Origin: Enterobacteria phage GiZh
Strand: one strand, 5' to 3'
Sequence record: NC_054903.1
Length of the DNA: 64,000 bases
The notes under the pieces were generated by a model. It worked only from the letters and a program-made list of their open reading frames with translations. It did not search any database and was not told where the DNA came from. This document shows positions 9,625 through 49,711 of the stretch, in pieces; position 1 is the first letter of the stretch, and each line of letters opens with the position of its first letter. A program made the position numbers and the translations under genes.

Positions 9625-10005
9625 TCAATTAGAAAATAAATTTATCCAAGATTGTTCTTTAATTAAAAATGGCTCAGAATCATATGCCATTAAACTTTGG
9701 GTAATTAGTCCTTTAAAAGGCCCATCAATAAATTCCATGGTAAAATATGGAATTTTATTCATTAATCTTGCATTAGGAGCAGTGCACAAAACTCTGCATC
9801 CTTTGAATACGCCTTTTTGTAATTTGTATTGCTTGGGATAAAATTCGCTTAAAATGTTATTATTTGCCAAAATTTCAAAATGATTTACCAATTTATTTTT
9901 AATAGTTTTTGGCGAAAAATAGAGATATTCGAAAAGCTGTGTGTCTGTCATCATTGCATTCCGATTACGAAAAACTGTGGACGAGTAATACCACCAATGC
10001 AACAT
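9625..10005 (-). CDS. hypothetical protein
   Basis: 126 aa ORF in track. Confidence 0.45.
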   Translation of the reverse strand: MLHWWYYSSTVFRNRNAMMTDTQLFEYLYFSPKTIKNKLVNHFEILANNNILSEFYPKQYKLQKGVFKGCRVLCTAPNARLMNKIPYFTMEFIDGPFKGLITQSLMAYDSEPFLIKEQSWINLFSN

Positions 10006-10490
10006 TTACTATTACAGCAGTAGTGTACAGTGTCAATATGGACGCTATAAATCTTATCCATATCAGGAGATTTGACAGGCTCATCAATTATATACAAAAT
10101 TCGCGAAAGCGATAAACCTCTGAACTTGCTTCCTTTATTACCGATAAAACTACGGACAGAATCGGTAAATAAACGGAATCGAATATCATCGCTAGAATAA
10201 CGAGAAAATTCTTTTTTAATGTGGCCTGCAGAAATTTTAGCGTAAGCTGAAGTATTAGAAAGAACAATAACTGTTCCACCATCATACAGCCAATTAGCGG
10301 CAAAGTTAGTTACTGCAGTTGATTTACCGGATTGACGTCCACCATCTATACGAAGTGTGCAGTACTGTTTAAGTAATTCTTCAAATGGTGGGATATAATC
10401 GTTTTTACAAATTTCTTCTACTCTAGCATCAGAATGGTGTGTAAAAGCATTCATCAGGGATAGATAAGGACCAGTTAAAAATGTTCTCAT
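9951..10490 (-). CDS. P-loop ATPase (start placed at MRTFLTGPYL)
   Basis: Walker A GGRQSGKST and Walker B-like LYIIDEP; GAGAG upstream of ATG at 10490. Confidence 0.5.
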   Translation of the reverse strand: MRTFLTGPYLSLMNAFTHHSDARVEEICKNDYIPPFEELLKQYCTLRIDGGRQSGKSTAVTNFAANWLYDGGTVIVLSNTSAYAKISAGHIKKEFSRYSSDDIRFRLFTDSVRSFIGNKGSKFRGLSLSRILYIIDEPVKSPDMDKIYSVHIDTVHYCCNSKCCIGGITRPQFFVIGMQ

Positions 10491-10631
10491 TTTATTCTCT
10501 CTAAATTTGGGCCATTCCGTGGCGCATGAATTGTCCATTTCTGTATTTACCCATTACCGCACTCAGGCTCGACCTTATCACAGGTTGGCGGGAATCCCTC
10601 ACAGAATCATGAGGTCCAGCTTGTTCCCATA

Positions 10632-11105
10632 TTATTTGAACGATTTAACGTACTGAATAGAACCTTTACTATTCACAAAGGCAATTTTACCATTTTTATT
10701 ATACATGGTAGCAGTACGTTGATAACCATAAGTTTGTTTACCAGATTGATAACCAACTAATGCGAAATTATCTTCGCCCATTTTATTCTGTTTAGCGCGA
10801 ATGCGTTCATGACCATGTGCCATAAGAACCTTAGCATCACCAGTTGCAATGGATCGACGAGTTTTTTCATCTTCAACTGTATTAACAAAGTCGTCAAATG
10901 AATCAAATTTAGCATGAGATTTATTATACAATTTTCCATCTACTGCATAATTATATCCCTGTACATCCATCTCAACTTCTGTACCATCATCCAATACAGC
11001 AGTGATTTTTTGACCTTTTTTAAATTTCAAAAGATCAGTAAAAGATTCAGCAATAATTTGAGAATTAATAGCTGCTTCAGTGATAAATTCTTGATATGTT
11101 TTCAT
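10632..11105 (-). CDS. internal-protein-like (capsid-targeting leader)
   Basis: 157 aa; N-terminus MKTYQEFITE then AAIN resembles the T4 IP leader with a gp21-type cleavage site. Confidence 0.7.
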   Translation of the reverse strand: MKTYQEFITEAAINSQIIAESFTDLLKFKKGQKITAVLDDGTEVEMDVQGYNYAVDGKLYNKSHAKFDSFDDFVNTVEDEKTRRSIATGDAKVLMAHGHERIRAKQNKMGEDNFALVGYQSGKQTYGYQRTATMYNKNGKIAFVNSKGSIQYVKSFK

Positions 11106-11114
11106 ATGTTTCCT

Positions 11115-11531
11115 TTAAATGTAAATATTTTTACCGTAATACTTATACCAATGTGGTTTCATTAAAATTTTTTCATCAAGTCGTTGTTGACTCAATTTAA
11201 TAGCTGATTTGCATGGATTATAATCATTTTTCCATTCTACTGGAATATCGCTGATGTCAGGAACTTCAGTATCTTTTATACTGAACCCGCGTTTTAAGCA
11301 TTCCGTTATAATGTCTAATTGACTCTTTCGCAAAAATTCTAACTTATCGTAAAAGAACGTAACATGACCAGAACCTAAAATAAACTCGGAAGATATTTTA
11401 AAATCTTTAACGCGCTTACCGTTTGCCACATGCTTACGAACTATACCAAAAACACGCGGCAATTCACGGTATTCTGCGATTAAATGTTGATCAGCAAGTT
11501 CAGATACTAAAGTCAAATTAATACGAGTCAT
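11115..11531 (-). CDS. denV: endonuclease V (pyrimidine-dimer DNA glycosylase)
   Basis: 138 aa; [17 protein letters not shown]...[10 protein letters not shown] close to T4 DenV. Confidence 0.9.
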
Positions 11532-11544
11532 TTTATCCCTCCAA

Positions 11545-11590
11545 TTAACTGTGAATATACTATCACAATTCTAGGAGAAAGTAAACAACT
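11545..11590 (-). promoter_or_regulatory. early promoter upstream of denV
   Basis: gtaaac near 11581-11586 and tatactatc -10-like region. Confidence 0.45.
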
Positions 11591-12121
<531 letters not shown>

Positions 12122-12562
12122 TTAAAAGAGGCTGTTCATTATTCGGTAAAGTGAAGGACCCATCACATATTGCCACTGAGTACGAGGAATAAGAGCAAAA
12201 GCATCCATCTCTGGAATCATAACACCATCTTTATTTTCAAAATAAGACTCGCAATGGCAATTTCTAAACATCTCATGCTCTACTGGAATCGTATAATAAA
12301 ACAGCTGTAAGTCTTTATTACTAGAATATTTAAATACACCTAGGTCTTCTAGAAGGTCTGGATTATAATTGCTAAAACCGGTCTCTTCTAAGCATTCTCT
12401 TCGTGCTGCATCTAGTGCGCTCAAATCAGAATTTTCTACACGGCCTTTTGGAATATCCCAACGATGTGCCATCATTCCAGGCTTACGAGAACCAGTAACC
12501 CGTCCCATGAATAAATCTTTATCTTCTGTCATAAAGATAATACCAGCTGATAATGTTTTCAT
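12122..12562 (-). CDS. nudE: Nudix hydrolase
   Basis: Nudix box GRVENSDLSALDAARRECLEETG; start at MKTLSAGIIF with ATGA overlap (track ORF extends to 12577). Confidence 0.8.
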   Translation of the reverse strand: MKTLSAGIIFMTEDKDLFMGRVTGSRKPGMMAHRWDIPKGRVENSDLSALDAARRECLEETGFSNYNPDLLEDLGVFKYSSNKDLQLFYYTIPVEHEMFRNCHCESYFENKDGVMIPEMDAFALIPRTQWQYVMGPSLYRIMNSLF

Positions 12563-13047
12563 TTTAATTTCCTGCATTCGGTGATAAAATTATTTAAATT
12601 TTGAGTGTATTTCTTTTCATCAAAAATCTTTTGCTGCCTACGTAAACGCCATGGCATTTCAATGAACACGCACCATATTCCTGATAGTACTGCTGCTGTA
12701 AAAATATTAACAAGTATAATTAAAAGAATCCAATCTTCCGTTCTGCCTACTGGACTTTCTCCAAAGAAGCAAAATACAAATGATGTCACAGGAAAACTAA
12801 TAATATACCACAGAATAACCTTCTTATCTGTGAACCAATCAGCGTTCGTTAACTTAGCACGACCATTTTGAATACACACGAATTTATCATCTGTTACAGT
12901 AGATGGCTTAACTGCTTGATATCCCATTCTAAACTCCCTAATTAATCGTTTCTTTGTATCTTCAGAACAGCCGCTCCAGTCAACTCTATCGACTGAAATG
13001 CCATCGTCCCCATCATCTAAATCATACCAGCGAGTTTTTAAAATCAT
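12559..13047 (-). CDS. hypothetical membrane protein (tandem family)
   Basis: 162 aa with TM helices; C-terminus NFITECRKLK. Confidence 0.55.
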   Translation of the reverse strand: MILKTRWYDLDDGDDGISVDRVDWSGCSEDTKKRLIREFRMGYQAVKPSTVTDDKFVCIQNGRAKLTNADWFTDKKVILWYIISFPVTSFVFCFFGESPVGRTEDWILLIILVNIFTAAVLSGIWCVFIEMPWRLRRQQKIFDEKKYTQNLNNFITECRKLK

Positions 13048-16830: not shown

Positions 16831-16906
16831 TGGTCGAGGCAGTAGGGATCGAACCTACGACCTAGGACTTAGAAGGTCCTTGCTCTTCCTTCTGAGCTAT
16901 GCCTCG
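16831..16906 (-). tRNA. tRNA-Arg (anticodon UCU)
   Basis: Hand-folded cloverleaf: acceptor CGAGGCA/TGCCTCG, loop CTTCTAA, T-arm GTAGGTTCGATCCCTAC, encoded CCA. Confidence 0.75.
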
Positions 16907-16910
16907 GATT

Positions 16911-16985
16911 TGGCGGACGTGATAGGATTCGAACCTATAACCAATCGCTTAACAGGCGATCGCTCTGCCATTGAGCTACACATCC
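16911..16985 (-). tRNA. tRNA-Asn (anticodon GUU)
   Basis: Acceptor GGATGTG/CACGTCC (one G-U), anticodon loop CTGTTAA, T-loop TTCGAAT, CCA. Confidence 0.7.
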
Positions 16986-16989
16986 AAAT

Positions 16990-17076
16990 TGGTGGGGAGT
17001 GATGGAGTCGAACCACCCGAGTCGCAATGACAATGGATTTACAGTCCACACCGCTACCTCTACGGGATAACTCCCC
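16990..17076 (-). tRNA. tRNA-Tyr (anticodon GUA), long variable arm
   Basis: Acceptor GGGGAGT/ACTCCCC, anticodon loop CTGTAAA, 87 nt, CCA. Confidence 0.7.
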
Positions 17077-17088
17077 TAATTCATAATT

Positions 17089-17163
17089 TGGTGGCCCTGG
17101 GTGGAATTGAACCACCATCTGGCGATTATGAGTCGCTTGCTTGAACCTTCCAGCTACAGGGCC
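17089..17163 (-). tRNA. tRNA with CAU anticodon (Ile2-like)
   Basis: Acceptor GGCCCTG/CAGGGCC; anticodon arm GCGACTCATAATCGC resembles tRNA-Ile(LAU); CCA. Confidence 0.7.
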
Positions 17164-17164
17164 T

Positions 17165-17240
17165 TGGTGCTGATTGACGGAATCGAACCGCCGACCTTCT
17201 CATTACAAGTGAGTTGCTCTACCTACTGAGCTAAATCAGC
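17165..17240 (-). tRNA. tRNA-Thr (anticodon UGU)
   Basis: Acceptor GCTGATT/AATCAGC, anticodon loop CTTGTAA, T-loop TTCGATT, CCA. Confidence 0.75.
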
Positions 17241-17245
17241 AAAAC

Positions 17246-17335
17246 TGGCGGAGGCGATAGGATTTGAACCTATGAGTCGCCGGAGCGACTGCCGGTTTTC
17301 AAGACCGGTGCATTAAACCACTCTGCCACGCCTCC
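17246..17335 (-). tRNA. tRNA-Ser (anticodon UGA), long variable arm
   Basis: Acceptor GGAGGCG/CGCCTCC, anticodon stem-loop CCGGT-CTTGAAA-ACCGG, 90 nt, CCA. Confidence 0.75.
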
Positions 17336-17337
17336 AG

Positions 17338-17411
17338 TCTCCATACAAGGATTTGAACCTTGGACCTCCTGATCCCAAATCAGGCGCTCTACCAAACTGA
17401 GCTACACGGAG
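17338..17411 (-). tRNA. tRNA-Pro (anticodon UGG)
   Basis: Anticodon stem-loop CCTGA-TTTGGGA-TCAGG, T-arm CAAGGTTCAAATCCTTG; CCA not encoded. Confidence 0.7.
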
Positions 17412-17421
17412 TAAATTAAAT

Positions 17422-17495
<74 letters not shown>

Positions 17496-17500
17496 AAATT

Positions 17501-17587
17501 TGGTGCGAGAAGTGGGACTCGAACCCACAAGGAAATCATTCCGCAGCATTTTAAGTGCTGTACCTTTACCAATTTGACCATTCTCGC
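17501..17587 (-). tRNA. tRNA-Leu (anticodon UAA), long variable arm
   Basis: Acceptor GCGAGAA/TTCTCGC, anticodon stem-loop CAGCA-CTTAAAA-TGCTG, 87 nt, CCA. Confidence 0.75.
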
Positions 17588-17588
17588 G

Positions 17589-17661
17589 CTGGGAATAAAG
17601 GACTCGAACCTTTGCATCCTGGAATCAAAATCCAGTGCCTTACCAACTTGGCTAATTCCCA
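17589..17661 (-). tRNA. tRNA-Gln (anticodon UUG)
   Basis: Acceptor TGGGAAT/ATTCCCA, anticodon stem-loop CTGGA-TTTTGAT-TCCAG; 1 nt from tRNA-Leu. Confidence 0.7.
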
Positions 17662-18629: not shown

Positions 18630-18680
18630 GTAGTTGATAGGGTAATAGTATCACTACCCTATCTAAAAGTAAACTTATTT
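18630..18680 (-). promoter_or_regulatory. early-promoter/stem-loop cassette (PeSL-like)
   Basis: Core TAATAGTATCACTAC flanked by inverted repeat gataggg/ccctatc; gtaaac 18669-18674. Confidence 0.5.
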
Positions 18681-18908
18681 TTTACGAAAAATTGATTTAT
18701 TTTCTGCTGCCCATTTTTCAATAACTGCAGCAGGACCAGTAACAACAATTTTATCACCGTAATCTTCTGCGGCGAGTTGACCGAAATTATCTAATGCATC
18801 ACGAAGAACTCCATGAGGCATTTCACCCATTTTATCTTTCTTGCCGGTGTAAATAAACTCAACTTTTACATCAGAAGATTCAGCGATAAACTCTTTGAAA
18901 GTTTTCAT
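18675..18908 (-). CDS. internal-protein-like (capsid-targeting leader)
   Basis: Start placed at MKTFKEFIAE then SSDV (track ORF extends to 18974); about 77 aa. Confidence 0.6.
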   Translation of the reverse strand: MKTFKEFIAESSDVKVEFIYTGKKDKMGEMPHGVLRDALDNFGQLAAEDYGDKIVVTGPAAVIEKWAAENKSIFRKK

Positions 18909-18934: not shown

Positions 18935-18990
18935 ATAGAGTAATAGTATCACTACTAAAACCCTGTGTAAACAACTTTGTGAAATTATTT
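18935..18990 (-). promoter_or_regulatory. early-promoter cassette (PeSL-like)
   Basis: Same core; gtaaacaactttgtgaaattattttaaa shared with copy at 19262. Confidence 0.5.
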
Positions 18991-19242
18991 TAAATCTTCT
19001 AATCGTTTCTTCATCTTAGAACCATTTTTAGCAATTTCTCCTGCATCTGAGCATAATGCTAAAAGCGCTTTAACTTTAGTTTGGTCTCCTTTAAAAGATG
19101 AAGGATCGACTGCAGCAGCAAGTTCTTTAATACGAGAGAAAAGACGCTCAGCTTCAGCTAAAGCCATTCCAAGCTTTACTTCCATACCGTGGGAAGATTC
19201 GGTGATAGTAGTTTTTGTAGCAAACTCTTTGAAAGTTTTCAT
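18985..19242 (-). CDS. internal-protein-like (capsid-targeting leader)
   Basis: 85 aa; MKTFKEFATKTTITE then SSHG; AGGA upstream of ATG. Confidence 0.65.
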   Translation of the reverse strand: MKTFKEFATKTTITESSHGMEVKLGMALAEAERLFSRIKELAAAVDPSSFKGDQTKVKALLALCSDAGEIAKNGSKMKKRLEDLK

Positions 19243-19261: not shown

Positions 19262-20011
<750 letters not shown>

Positions 20012-47808: not shown

Positions 47809-48233
47809 TGCTTCTGATCCCTGAAACTCATGAATTAGTTCTCGAGAATGTCGAAGCACTTATTCCTGAAGCACAGGGTCGCTTTGACGAATTGTCTTCT
47901 GCTTTAAATAAAGACGATATAAATACAATTGTCGAGAATATGCTTGATGATGAAACTGATTTAGCGGTTGCATTAGCTTCTATTAATGAAAATATGCCGT
48001 TAAATGAATTTATCGTTAAACATGTTTCTGCCCGTGGTGAAATTACTCGCACTAAAGATCGCAAAACCCGCGAACGTAATGCATTTCAAACTACCGGGTT
48101 GTCTAAAGCAAAACGTAGACAAATTGCTCGTAAAGCTACCAAAACGAAGATTGCCAATCCAGCAGGTCAATCTCGTGCTCAGCGTAAGCGTAAAAAAGCT
48201 CTTAAACGCCGTAAAGCATTAGGATTAAGCTAA
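47808..48233 (+). CDS. 68: prohead core protein gp68
   Basis: 141 aa, position between 67 and 21. Confidence 0.85.
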
Positions 48234-48871
48234 TGAATGAACCCCAATTACTAATTGAAACTTGGGGTCAACCTGGCGAAATTATTGATGGCGTACCAAT
48301 GCTTGAATCTCATGATGGAAAAGACTTAGGTTTAAAACCTGGTTTATACATCGAAGGAATATTCATGCAAGCGGAAGTCGTCAATAGAAATAAACGTCTT
48401 TATCCAAAACGTATATTAGAAAAAGCGGTAAAAGACTATATTAATGAGCAAGTTTTAACTAAACAAGCTCTCGGAGAATTAAATCATCCTCCACGCGCTA
48501 ATGTTGACCCGATGCAAGCCGCTATCATTATAGAAGATATGTGGTGGAAAGGAAATGACGTATACGGACGAGCTCGTGTTATTGAAGGTGACCATGGTCC
48601 TGGAGATAAATTAGCAGCTAATATTCGTGCCGGATGGATTCCAGGAGTTTCTTCTCGTGGATTAGGTTCATTGACTGACACAAATAAAGGTTATCGTATC
48701 GTAAACGAAGGATTCAAATTAACTGTAGGTGTTGATGCAGTATGGGGTCCAAGTGCTCCAGATGCATGGGTAACTCCTAAGGAAATTACCGAATCACAGA
48801 CGGCGGAAGCCGATACAAGTGCCGATGACGCCTATATGGCTCTCGCAGAGGCCATGAAAAAAGCGTTATAA
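48233..48871 (+). CDS. 21: prohead core protease gp21
   Basis: 212 aa, matches T4 gp21. Confidence 0.9.
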   Translation: MNEPQLLIETWGQPGEIIDGVPMLESHDGKDLGLKPGLYIEGIFMQAEVVNRNKRLYPKRILEKAVKDYINEQVLTKQALGELNHPPRANVDPMQAAIIIEDMWWKGNDVYGRARVIEGDHGPGDKLAANIRAGWIPGVSSRGLGSLTDTNKGYRIVNEGFKLTVGVDAVWGPSAPDAWVTPKEITESQTAEADTSADDAYMALAEAMKKAL

Positions 48872-48901: not shown

Positions 48902-49711
48902 ATGCTTAAAGAACAACTGATTGCCGAAGCGCAGAAAATTGATGCTTCCGTTGCTCTTGATAGTATTTTCGAATCAGTTAATATTTCTCCGGAAGCAAAA
49001 GAAACTTTCGGCACTGTATTCGAAGCTACCGTCAAGCAGCACGCCGTTAAATTAGCTGAATCTCATATCGCTAAAATTGCTGAAAAAGCAGAAGAAGAAG
49101 TAGAAAAAAATAAAGAAGAAGCAGAAGAAAAAGCTGAGAAGAAAATCGCTGAGCAAGCTTCTAAATTCCTTGACCATCTTGCAAAAGAATGGCTCACTGA
49201 AAATAAATTAGCAGTAGATAAAGGCATCAAAGCCGAACTGTTTGAATCCATGCTTGGTGGATTAAAAGAGCTCTTTGTTGAACACAACGTTGTTGTTCCA
49301 GAAGAATCAGTTGATGTTGTAGCTGAAATGGAAGAAGAGCTGCAAGAACATAAAGAAGAATCAGCTCGTCTGTTCGAAGAACTCAATAAGCGTGACGCAT
49401 ATATCAATTATGTGCAGCGTGAAGTGGCATTGAGCGAAAGTACTAAAGATCTGACTGAGTCTCAAAAAGAAAAAGTCTCTGCTCTGGTCGAAGGTATGGA
49501 TTATTCAGATGCATTCTCAAGTAAATTGAGTGCAATCGTAGAAATGGTGAAGAAATCTAATAAAGATGAAAGCACTATTACTGAGAGTATAAATACTCCT
49601 GATACTGAAGCAGCCGGACTGAATTTCGTCACTGAAGCTGTAGAAGATAAATCTGCATCTGGTGCAGAAGATATTGTAAGTGTATATGCGAAAGTCGCAT
49701 CTCGTTTCTAA
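48902..49711 (+). CDS. 22: prohead core scaffold protein gp22
   Basis: 269 aa, acidic helical; late promoter at 48866. Confidence 0.9.
   Translation: MLKEQLIAEAQKIDASVALDSIFESVNISPEAKETFGTVFEATVKQHAVKLAESHIAKIAEKAEEEVEKNKEEAEEKAEKKIAEQASKFLDHLAKEWLTENKLAVDKGIKAELFESMLGGLKELFVEHNVVVPEESVDVVAEMEEELQEHKEESARLFEELNKRDAYINYVQREVALSESTKDLTESQKEKVSALVEGMDYSDAFSSKLSAIVEMVKKSNKDESTITESINTPDTEAAGLNFVTEAVEDKSASGAEDIVSVYAKVASRF

Follow-up and report, generated by a model that had tools for sequence, protein, structure and literature searches.

In the 64,000-nucleotide (nt) stretch of Enterobacteria phage GiZh (sequence record NC_054903.1; hereafter the window, meaning this whole stretch, to which all coordinates refer), the lysozyme gene e, denV, an internal-protein gene and a vs.8-like gene follow one another in the order e - denV - ip4 - vs.8, all on the minus strand (Table 1). 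The third of these, an open reading frame (ORF) whose start codon lies 9 nt past the denV stop, is the subject of this work. A first-pass annotation made from the sequence had described it as an internal-protein-like gene directly downstream of denV, arranged differently from T4, for which it gave ipII and ipIII between denV and e. The T4 reference genome (NC_000866) indeed reads e - ipIII - ipII - denV - vs.8, so both this T4 order and the difference in arrangement hold. Its description as a third such gene agrees with two more leader-bearing ORFs in the window, at 18675-18908 and 18985-19242.

Table 1. Features of the window referred to in the text (a slash marks a candidate cleavage site; aa, amino acids).
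Feature	Position	Strand	Remarks
ip4 (ipIV) coding sequence	10632-11105	minus	ATG ORF, 157 aa and stop codon
Capsid-targeting leader MKTYQEFITE, codons 1-10, ending in I-T-E/A	11076-11105	minus	Resembles leader of T4 IPII and IPIII
Linker, codons 11-20, ending in second candidate cleavage site I-A-E/S	11046-11075	minus	E20 conserved
Shared 5' module aaaaatatttacatttaaaggaaacat with Shine-Dalgarno AAGGAAA	11106-11132	minus	Overlaps last denV codons and stop
Conserved GC-rich element	10539-10631	minus	Right boundary of variable block, directly past ip4 stop
denV	11115-11531	minus	138 aa; Pfam Pyr_excise, PHROG 1183 (endonuclease V, pyrimidine-dimer glycosylase family)
Lysozyme e	11591-12085	minus	Upstream of denV
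nudE	12122-12577	minus	Upstream of e
vs.8-like gene	9951-10538	minus	Downstream of ip4
Two exact T4 late-promoter motifs TATAAATA	12099-12119	minus	Upstream of e; nearest exact ones upstream of ip4
One-mismatch late-motif variant TAAAAATA	11126-11133	minus	Inside shared 5' module
One-mismatch late-motif variant TATAAGTA	11140-11147	minus	Near ip4
Promoter-like GTTTAC, 18 nt, TGaTAGTAT	11557-11586	minus	Upstream of denV; read by eye, below consensus-scan threshold
gp21 prohead core serine protease	48233-48871	plus	Expected to remove the Ip4 leader; Pfam Peptidase_S77, E 1.5e-111
gp22 scaffolding core protein	48902-49711	plus	Target structure of internal proteins; Pfam T4_CASP, E 5.2e-90
Leader-bearing internal-protein gene, 77 aa, MKTFKEFIAE/SSD	One of the pair 18675-18908 and 18985-19242 (ipI locus)	minus	PHROG 8111
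Leader-bearing internal-protein gene, 85 aa, MKTFKEFATKTTITE/SS	One of the same ipI-locus pair	minus	PHROG 3499

The predicted product, which begins with MKTYQEFITEAAINS, matches two families over its full length: Pfam DUF7412 (PF24183; E = 5.7e-96, 319.4 bits against a curated cut-off of 27 bits, residues 1-157 on profile positions 1-158) and PHROG 3155, "internal virion protein" (E = 6e-102, 339 bits). Because of these matches the ORF, judged by its sequence, is a genuine gene and no chance reading frame. Identity is 100% to the product of T2 ipIV (annotated as "internal virion protein"), to RB32 Ip4 and to the PP01 IpIV internal head protein, and 99% to K3 Ip4 (UniProt Q38388), which was also the sole significant match in a viral structure library (template modelling score (TM) 0.96); in phage JK1 the gene at the same position is annotated as Ip4. 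By homology it is thus the orthologue of an already named gene, ip4 or ipIV, and a member of the Ip4/DUF7412 family. The T2, K3, RB32 and PP01 proteins share the same leader with it and are the same protein (99-100% over 157 residues), and T2 ipIV and its equivalents likewise stand beside the GC-rich element upstream of vs.8; nothing of substance differs.

A tblastn search of 50,697 phage records found Ip4 in 469 of them, with at least 99% identity in 289. The proteins of T4-like phages of Klebsiella, Salmonella and Raoultella are about 68-72% identical, and Serratia T4-like phages are also among the records. For comparison, IPIII was found in 261 records and IPII in 198. A 210-nt stretch across the denV-ip4 junction itself was matched with at least 80% coverage in 163 records. 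On these counts, more of the sequenced relatives have the denV-ip4 arrangement than have that of T4. The novelty implied by the first-pass annotation was therefore overstated: the gene carries its name in T2, RB32, PP01, K3 and JK1, has been named since the 1990s (UniProt Q38388, K3 Ip4), and is annotated in hundreds of genomes of T4-like phages. Polymorphism of the ip loci of T-even phages is textbook material. As a discovery, a known gene at a known polymorphic locus in the commoner arrangement carries little weight. Two later papers (PMC3012670, PMC12373910) cite Repoila et al. (1994) for the existence of many T-even ip genes with only the leader in common.

The relation of Ip4 to the T4 proteins agrees with that description. 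In BLASTP comparisons, Ip4 aligned with T4 IPII at 31% identity over 77 aa, much of it leader, and with IPIII only over the first 13 residues. No homolog of ipII or ipIII was detected by tblastn anywhere in the 64-kb window, where matches were confined to leaders of 11-19 residues. Beyond the leader no relation to IPII or IPIII was found, the viral structure library yielding only Ip4; Ip1 was not compared directly. The proposal that the gene encodes a protein distinct from IPII and IPIII is thus borne out, as neither high identity to these proteins nor a T4 reference with the gene order of the window was observed.

A variable block between e and vs.8

Comparison of the window with T4, T2 and phage teqsoen reveals a block of variable content between fixed boundaries, formed on the left by e with its downstream intergenic region and on the right by the GC-rich element. 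The block holds ipIII, ipII and denV in T4, denV and ip4 in the window, and denV, a 105-aa leader-bearing gene and ip4 in teqsoen; in T2 it consists of ipIV only, which directly follows e in the absence of denV. In all four phages a module of about 27 nt, almost unchanged in sequence, stands before every ip gene, and every ip gene opens with the same leader codons. The 27-nt module of the window ip4 recurs without any difference in front of T4 ipII and of the second teqsoen ip gene, and together with the leader codons it forms a stretch of 50 identical nt between the window ip4 and T4 ipII (-27 to +23). T2 ipIV and T4 ipIII have a 60-nt upstream region in common. In the window the module overwrites the 3' end of denV, whose product ends in GKNIYI, in contrast to GKAIYA in T4. 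Compared with T4 denV, the window allele has diverged: identity is 77% at the aa and 78% at the nt level, and the alignment covers only 290 of the 417 nt. In contrast, e, nudE and vs.8 are 94-96% identical to T4 at the nt level.

From these comparisons, the e-to-vs.8 region is a recombination-prone cassette site for ip genes, and the repeated 5' modules would be obvious substrates for homologous recombination that shuffles the cassettes. The position of ip4 fits one of the two variable ip loci, the e-denV-vs.8 region, the other being the ipI locus near 57B. The likeness of ip4 to T4 ipII and ipIII consists of the 10-residue leader, the 5' module with its ribosome-binding site and residence in the same variable block, whereas the mature parts of the proteins are unrelated, and the T4 genes lie upstream of denV and ip4 downstream of it.

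The GC-rich element is found at corresponding positions in T4 (L003 3310-3440), T2 (L002 3475-3615) and teqsoen (L004 895-1026). Its start lies 0-4 nt past the stop codon of whichever gene closes the block (ip4/ipIV in the window, T2 and teqsoen, denV in T4), and the window copy is 92% identical to the copy after T4 denV and 94% identical to that after T2 ipIV. It contains a nested hairpin (GGGAA..CCTCA..TGAGG..TTCCC), of which teqsoen retains both stems with a shorter loop. It matched no Rfam family, and its folding energy was no better than that of shuffled sequences (z = 0.62); given these two results, we dropped the element as a candidate structured RNA and retain it solely as the cassette boundary. 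It may act in RNA processing or stability, serve as a terminator or mark a recombination boundary.

The additional teqsoen gene (L004 1517-1834), between denV and ip4, encodes a protein starting MKTYQEFIAE/SAAGQRVEGGY, assigned to PHROG 3966 ("unknown function"), and carries the same 5' module as the window ip4. About 330 bp of extra sequence at the locus in slur02/04, JK38, Solly and other phages suggests a teqsoen-like insertion; among these phages teqsoen was the one checked. On the other side of the block, T4 vs.8 (L003 2754-3413) is annotated as 219 aa, with a 5' end that traverses the GC-rich element; in the window a stop codon closes that frame. The window vs.8 ORF has 195 aa, its PHROG 1488 match starts at residue 19, and JK1 annotates a product of 180 aa. 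The true start of vs.8 is probably Met17 (ATG at 10490), and the N-terminal extension in T4 may therefore be an annotation artefact. The vs.8 product gave weak P-loop/AAA and terminase-N-like matches.

Leader, processing and expression of Ip4

The Ip4 leader, of the kind common to T4 IPI, IPII and IPIII, is identical at nine of 10 positions to the MKTYQEFIAE of T4 IPII and IPIII, in line with the capsid-targeting leader recognized in the first-pass annotation. For T4 IpII and IpIII, residues -10 to -1 are annotated in GenBank X04567 as a removed signal peptide. Within the Ip4 family, M1, F7 and E10 show little or no variation, even in members of 34% identity.

In T4 head maturation, gp21 cleaves after the Glu of an aliphatic-x-Glu motif. 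Ip4 contains such motifs at residues 8-10 (ITE/A) and 18-20 (IAE/S). All 13 close members of the family carry E20 (14 of the 15 members in total), each time in the context aliphatic-x-E followed by S or A, and both Glu10 and Glu20 are conserved even in members of 34-36% identity. The structure model (see below) has predicted local distance difference test (pLDDT) values below 50 at residues 10-18, and above 80 only from residue 21 on. Because Glu20 is conserved and the confidence of the model rises from residue 21, mature Ip4 (Ip4*) may begin at Ser21 (137 aa, 15.5 kDa, isoelectric point (pI) 9.3) instead of Ala11. The mature region of 147 aa given by the first-pass annotation fits a cut after Glu10, but the conserved second site could give 137 aa. 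That annotation also pointed to the many Lys and Tyr residues, and our count of 18 Lys and nine Tyr agrees; with 10 or 20 residues removed, the predicted pI is 9.1-9.3.

By analogy with the T4 proteins, the leader would target the Ip4 precursor into the prohead scaffolding core, where gp21 would cut after Glu10 and possibly after Glu20, and a basic Ip4* of 15.5-16.5 kDa would stay among the packaged DNA and be injected into the host with it. T4 IPII and IPIII presumably follow the same route of scaffold core, gp21 cleavage and injection. Apart from gp21 and gp22 (Table 1), the window encodes gp67, the gp23 capsid protein and, at the position of gp68, an ORF without a Pfam match.

Packaging by this route would need the precursor to be made late. 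Exact matches to the late-promoter motif are more numerous in the window than expected (24 vs. 9.5), yet the motif scan of the window found none directly before ip4, and a consensus scan for promoters and terminators around ip4 gave counts no higher than in shuffled sequences. Since packaging needs late synthesis and no exact late motif directly precedes the gene, late synthesis of ip4 probably depends on read-through from e, and also from the promoter-like sequence upstream of denV, or on the one-mismatch variant TAAAAATA. The intergenic sequence that holds this promoter-like element also precedes T2 ipIV and T4 ipIII.

Fold and possible function of Ip4

The Ip4 family is small, with 14 clusters at 90% identity in a single-sequence search and 16 in a profile search, and an exhaustive HMMER search over 1.84 billion representatives matched only seven proteins. 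One distant member, P0017, is encoded in a T4-like contig downstream of the genes for a tail tube, a dNMP kinase and Acb1, and upstream of those for a valyl-tRNA synthetase modifier and an antiholin; the order of genes in this contig seems to be that of the equivalent region in T4-like genomes. A match to P0019, a repetitive adhesin-like protein of 1879 aa in which eight repeats of about 20 residues hit profile positions 36-55 (DGTEIEASVTGYDKAGN aligned against DGTEVEMDVQGYNYAVDG), was set aside as most likely a convergent beta-hairpin motif with no homology.

A first AlphaFold model, based on 13 close homologs, had a pLDDT of 50.7 and gave no Foldseek matches (TM about 0.15), and was discarded as meaningless. 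Addition of the three distant members raised the pLDDT to 83.8, with a predicted TM (pTM) of 0.78 and all five models at 82-84. In this model two low-confidence N-terminal helices are followed by strands 33-38 and 43-54, helices 70-74, 80-87 and 91-103, and strands 113-120, 131-137, 140-146 and 149-156. The loop 121-130 is conserved though less confident; it contains the invariant G122, G127 and Y128, and the invariant T131 starts the next strand. With these, the invariant non-basic residues of the family are G31, V48, G50, N61, A65, Q120, G122, G127, Y128 and T131. No close structural neighbor of the confident model was found, K3 Ip4 being the only protein returned by the viral structure library.

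Two ways of assigning a biochemical activity to Ip4 were considered. The family profile gave marginal PDB matches (E 0.064 and 0.11) to the first double-stranded RNA-binding domain (dsRBD1) of RNA helicase A, in which Ip4 residues 43-77 align with the G-x-x-x-N-K-x-x-A signature, at the site of several family-invariant residues. That the N-terminal half of Ip4 is a dsRBD binding nucleic-acid duplexes nevertheless seems scarcely credible; on follow-up we consider this reading refuted, among other things by the fold predicted in the confident AlphaFold model. The other is that Ip4 would be injected as an enzyme, such as a metal-dependent hydrolase that relies on the HGH motif. T4 packages an enzyme too, the ADP-ribosyltransferase Alt, and H97-G98-H99 is conserved in most close members. 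His97 and His99 are however replaced in the three distant ones, and we regard an enzymatic role as highly improbable. The segment HGHERIRAKQ singled out in the first-pass annotation is thus present, at residues 97-106, without being a signature of the family.

Our preferred reading, which we consider probable, is that the ORF is ip4, an interchangeable T-even internal head protein that is packaged, processed and injected and, by analogy, is likely to inhibit a host defence. T-even internal proteins have been described as diverse defence proteins with only the leader in common (PMC3012670), and IPIII lacking its leader functions in the host cytoplasm (PMC9391042). Each of the T4 proteins Ip1, Ip2 and Ip3 inhibits a single GmrSD type IV enzyme, a different one in each case, without cross-protection among them (PMC12373910). 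Mature IPI (IPI*, or Ip1), the inhibitor of the GmrSD of E. coli CT596, is likewise a small, leader-bearing protein that is processed and injected and has a compact fold of its own (PMC3012670). In contrast to Ip4, with 137-147 residues, it has 76 residues when mature, and its sequence is taken to be unrelated. Its gene lies at the other locus, the ipI locus near 57B, where the window carries two other ip genes. Following this analogy, Ip4* would most likely be a protein that stoichiometrically inhibits a "first-response" nuclease of the host directed against glucosyl-hydroxymethylcytosine DNA. This enzyme would belong to a type IV restriction subtype that has yet to be matched with Ip4, in the way that Ip1-Ip3 are each matched with one GmrSD subtype.

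Some observations weigh against this interpretation. When ip4-ip10 were assayed on a panel of GmrSD variants, no reproducible inhibition was seen (PMC12373910, Supplementary Fig. 9), and Ip4 has no identified GmrSD target, unlike T4 Ip2 and Ip3. In the searchable literature we found no virion proteomics or injection data for Ip4, and, concerning its function, only a figure legend on T2 ipIV repeats besides this negative screen. Because of the screen, GmrSD as the target of Ip4 is only moderately likely; we do not claim that Ip4 belongs to the GmrSD inhibitors, but by analogy it probably works like Ip1-Ip3.

The negative screen can also be counted in favor of a mainly structural role, in which Ip4* would be a charge-neutralizing, DNA-associated protein present in many copies and without a specific host target. 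The packaged DNA of T4 holds some 1000 molecules of internal proteins (PMC3012670), and mature Ip4 is basic, with the pI given above and 22 Lys and Arg residues vs. 17-18 Asp and Glu. However, its net charge is merely about +4 to +5. The compact, confidently predicted fold and the many invariant non-basic residues suggest a specific interaction surface, and the swapping of cassettes among close relatives is typical of arms-race genes. Moreover, the three internal proteins of T4 had at one time been regarded as generic, and each proved to have a specific target (PMC12373910). We therefore find a mainly structural function unlikely, though less so than an enzymatic one.

A narrower form of the inhibitor interpretation, which we put forward tentatively, is that Ip4* is an injected inhibitor with its own fold and a target outside the GmrSD variants of the screen, either a modification-dependent nuclease family that the screen did not cover or a non-nuclease system. 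The predicted fold would then comprise a small beta-barrel core, a three-helix insert and the conserved Gly/Tyr-rich loop 120-131. If this is true, the target would be a common enterobacterial defence, since no other ip gene at the locus is as widespread as ip4. The residual interest of the gene lies here: despite being the commonest one at this position, it is without a GmrSD partner, unlike T4 Ip1-Ip3. Later studies could make use of the high-confidence model of the structure, of the second candidate cleavage site conserved at Glu20 and of the precise limits of the cassette.

The ipI locus and tRNA genes

The two ip genes at the ipI locus lie between the tRNA cluster and an ORF at 19315-19770. 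The 85-aa product has a longer, atypical leader, in which the first Glu-ended motif is at residue 15, and neither this nor the 77-aa product matched a Pfam family. The tRNA cluster (16834-17661, minus strand) consists of ten genes found with Rfam, one of which (16995-17074) scored barely above the threshold.
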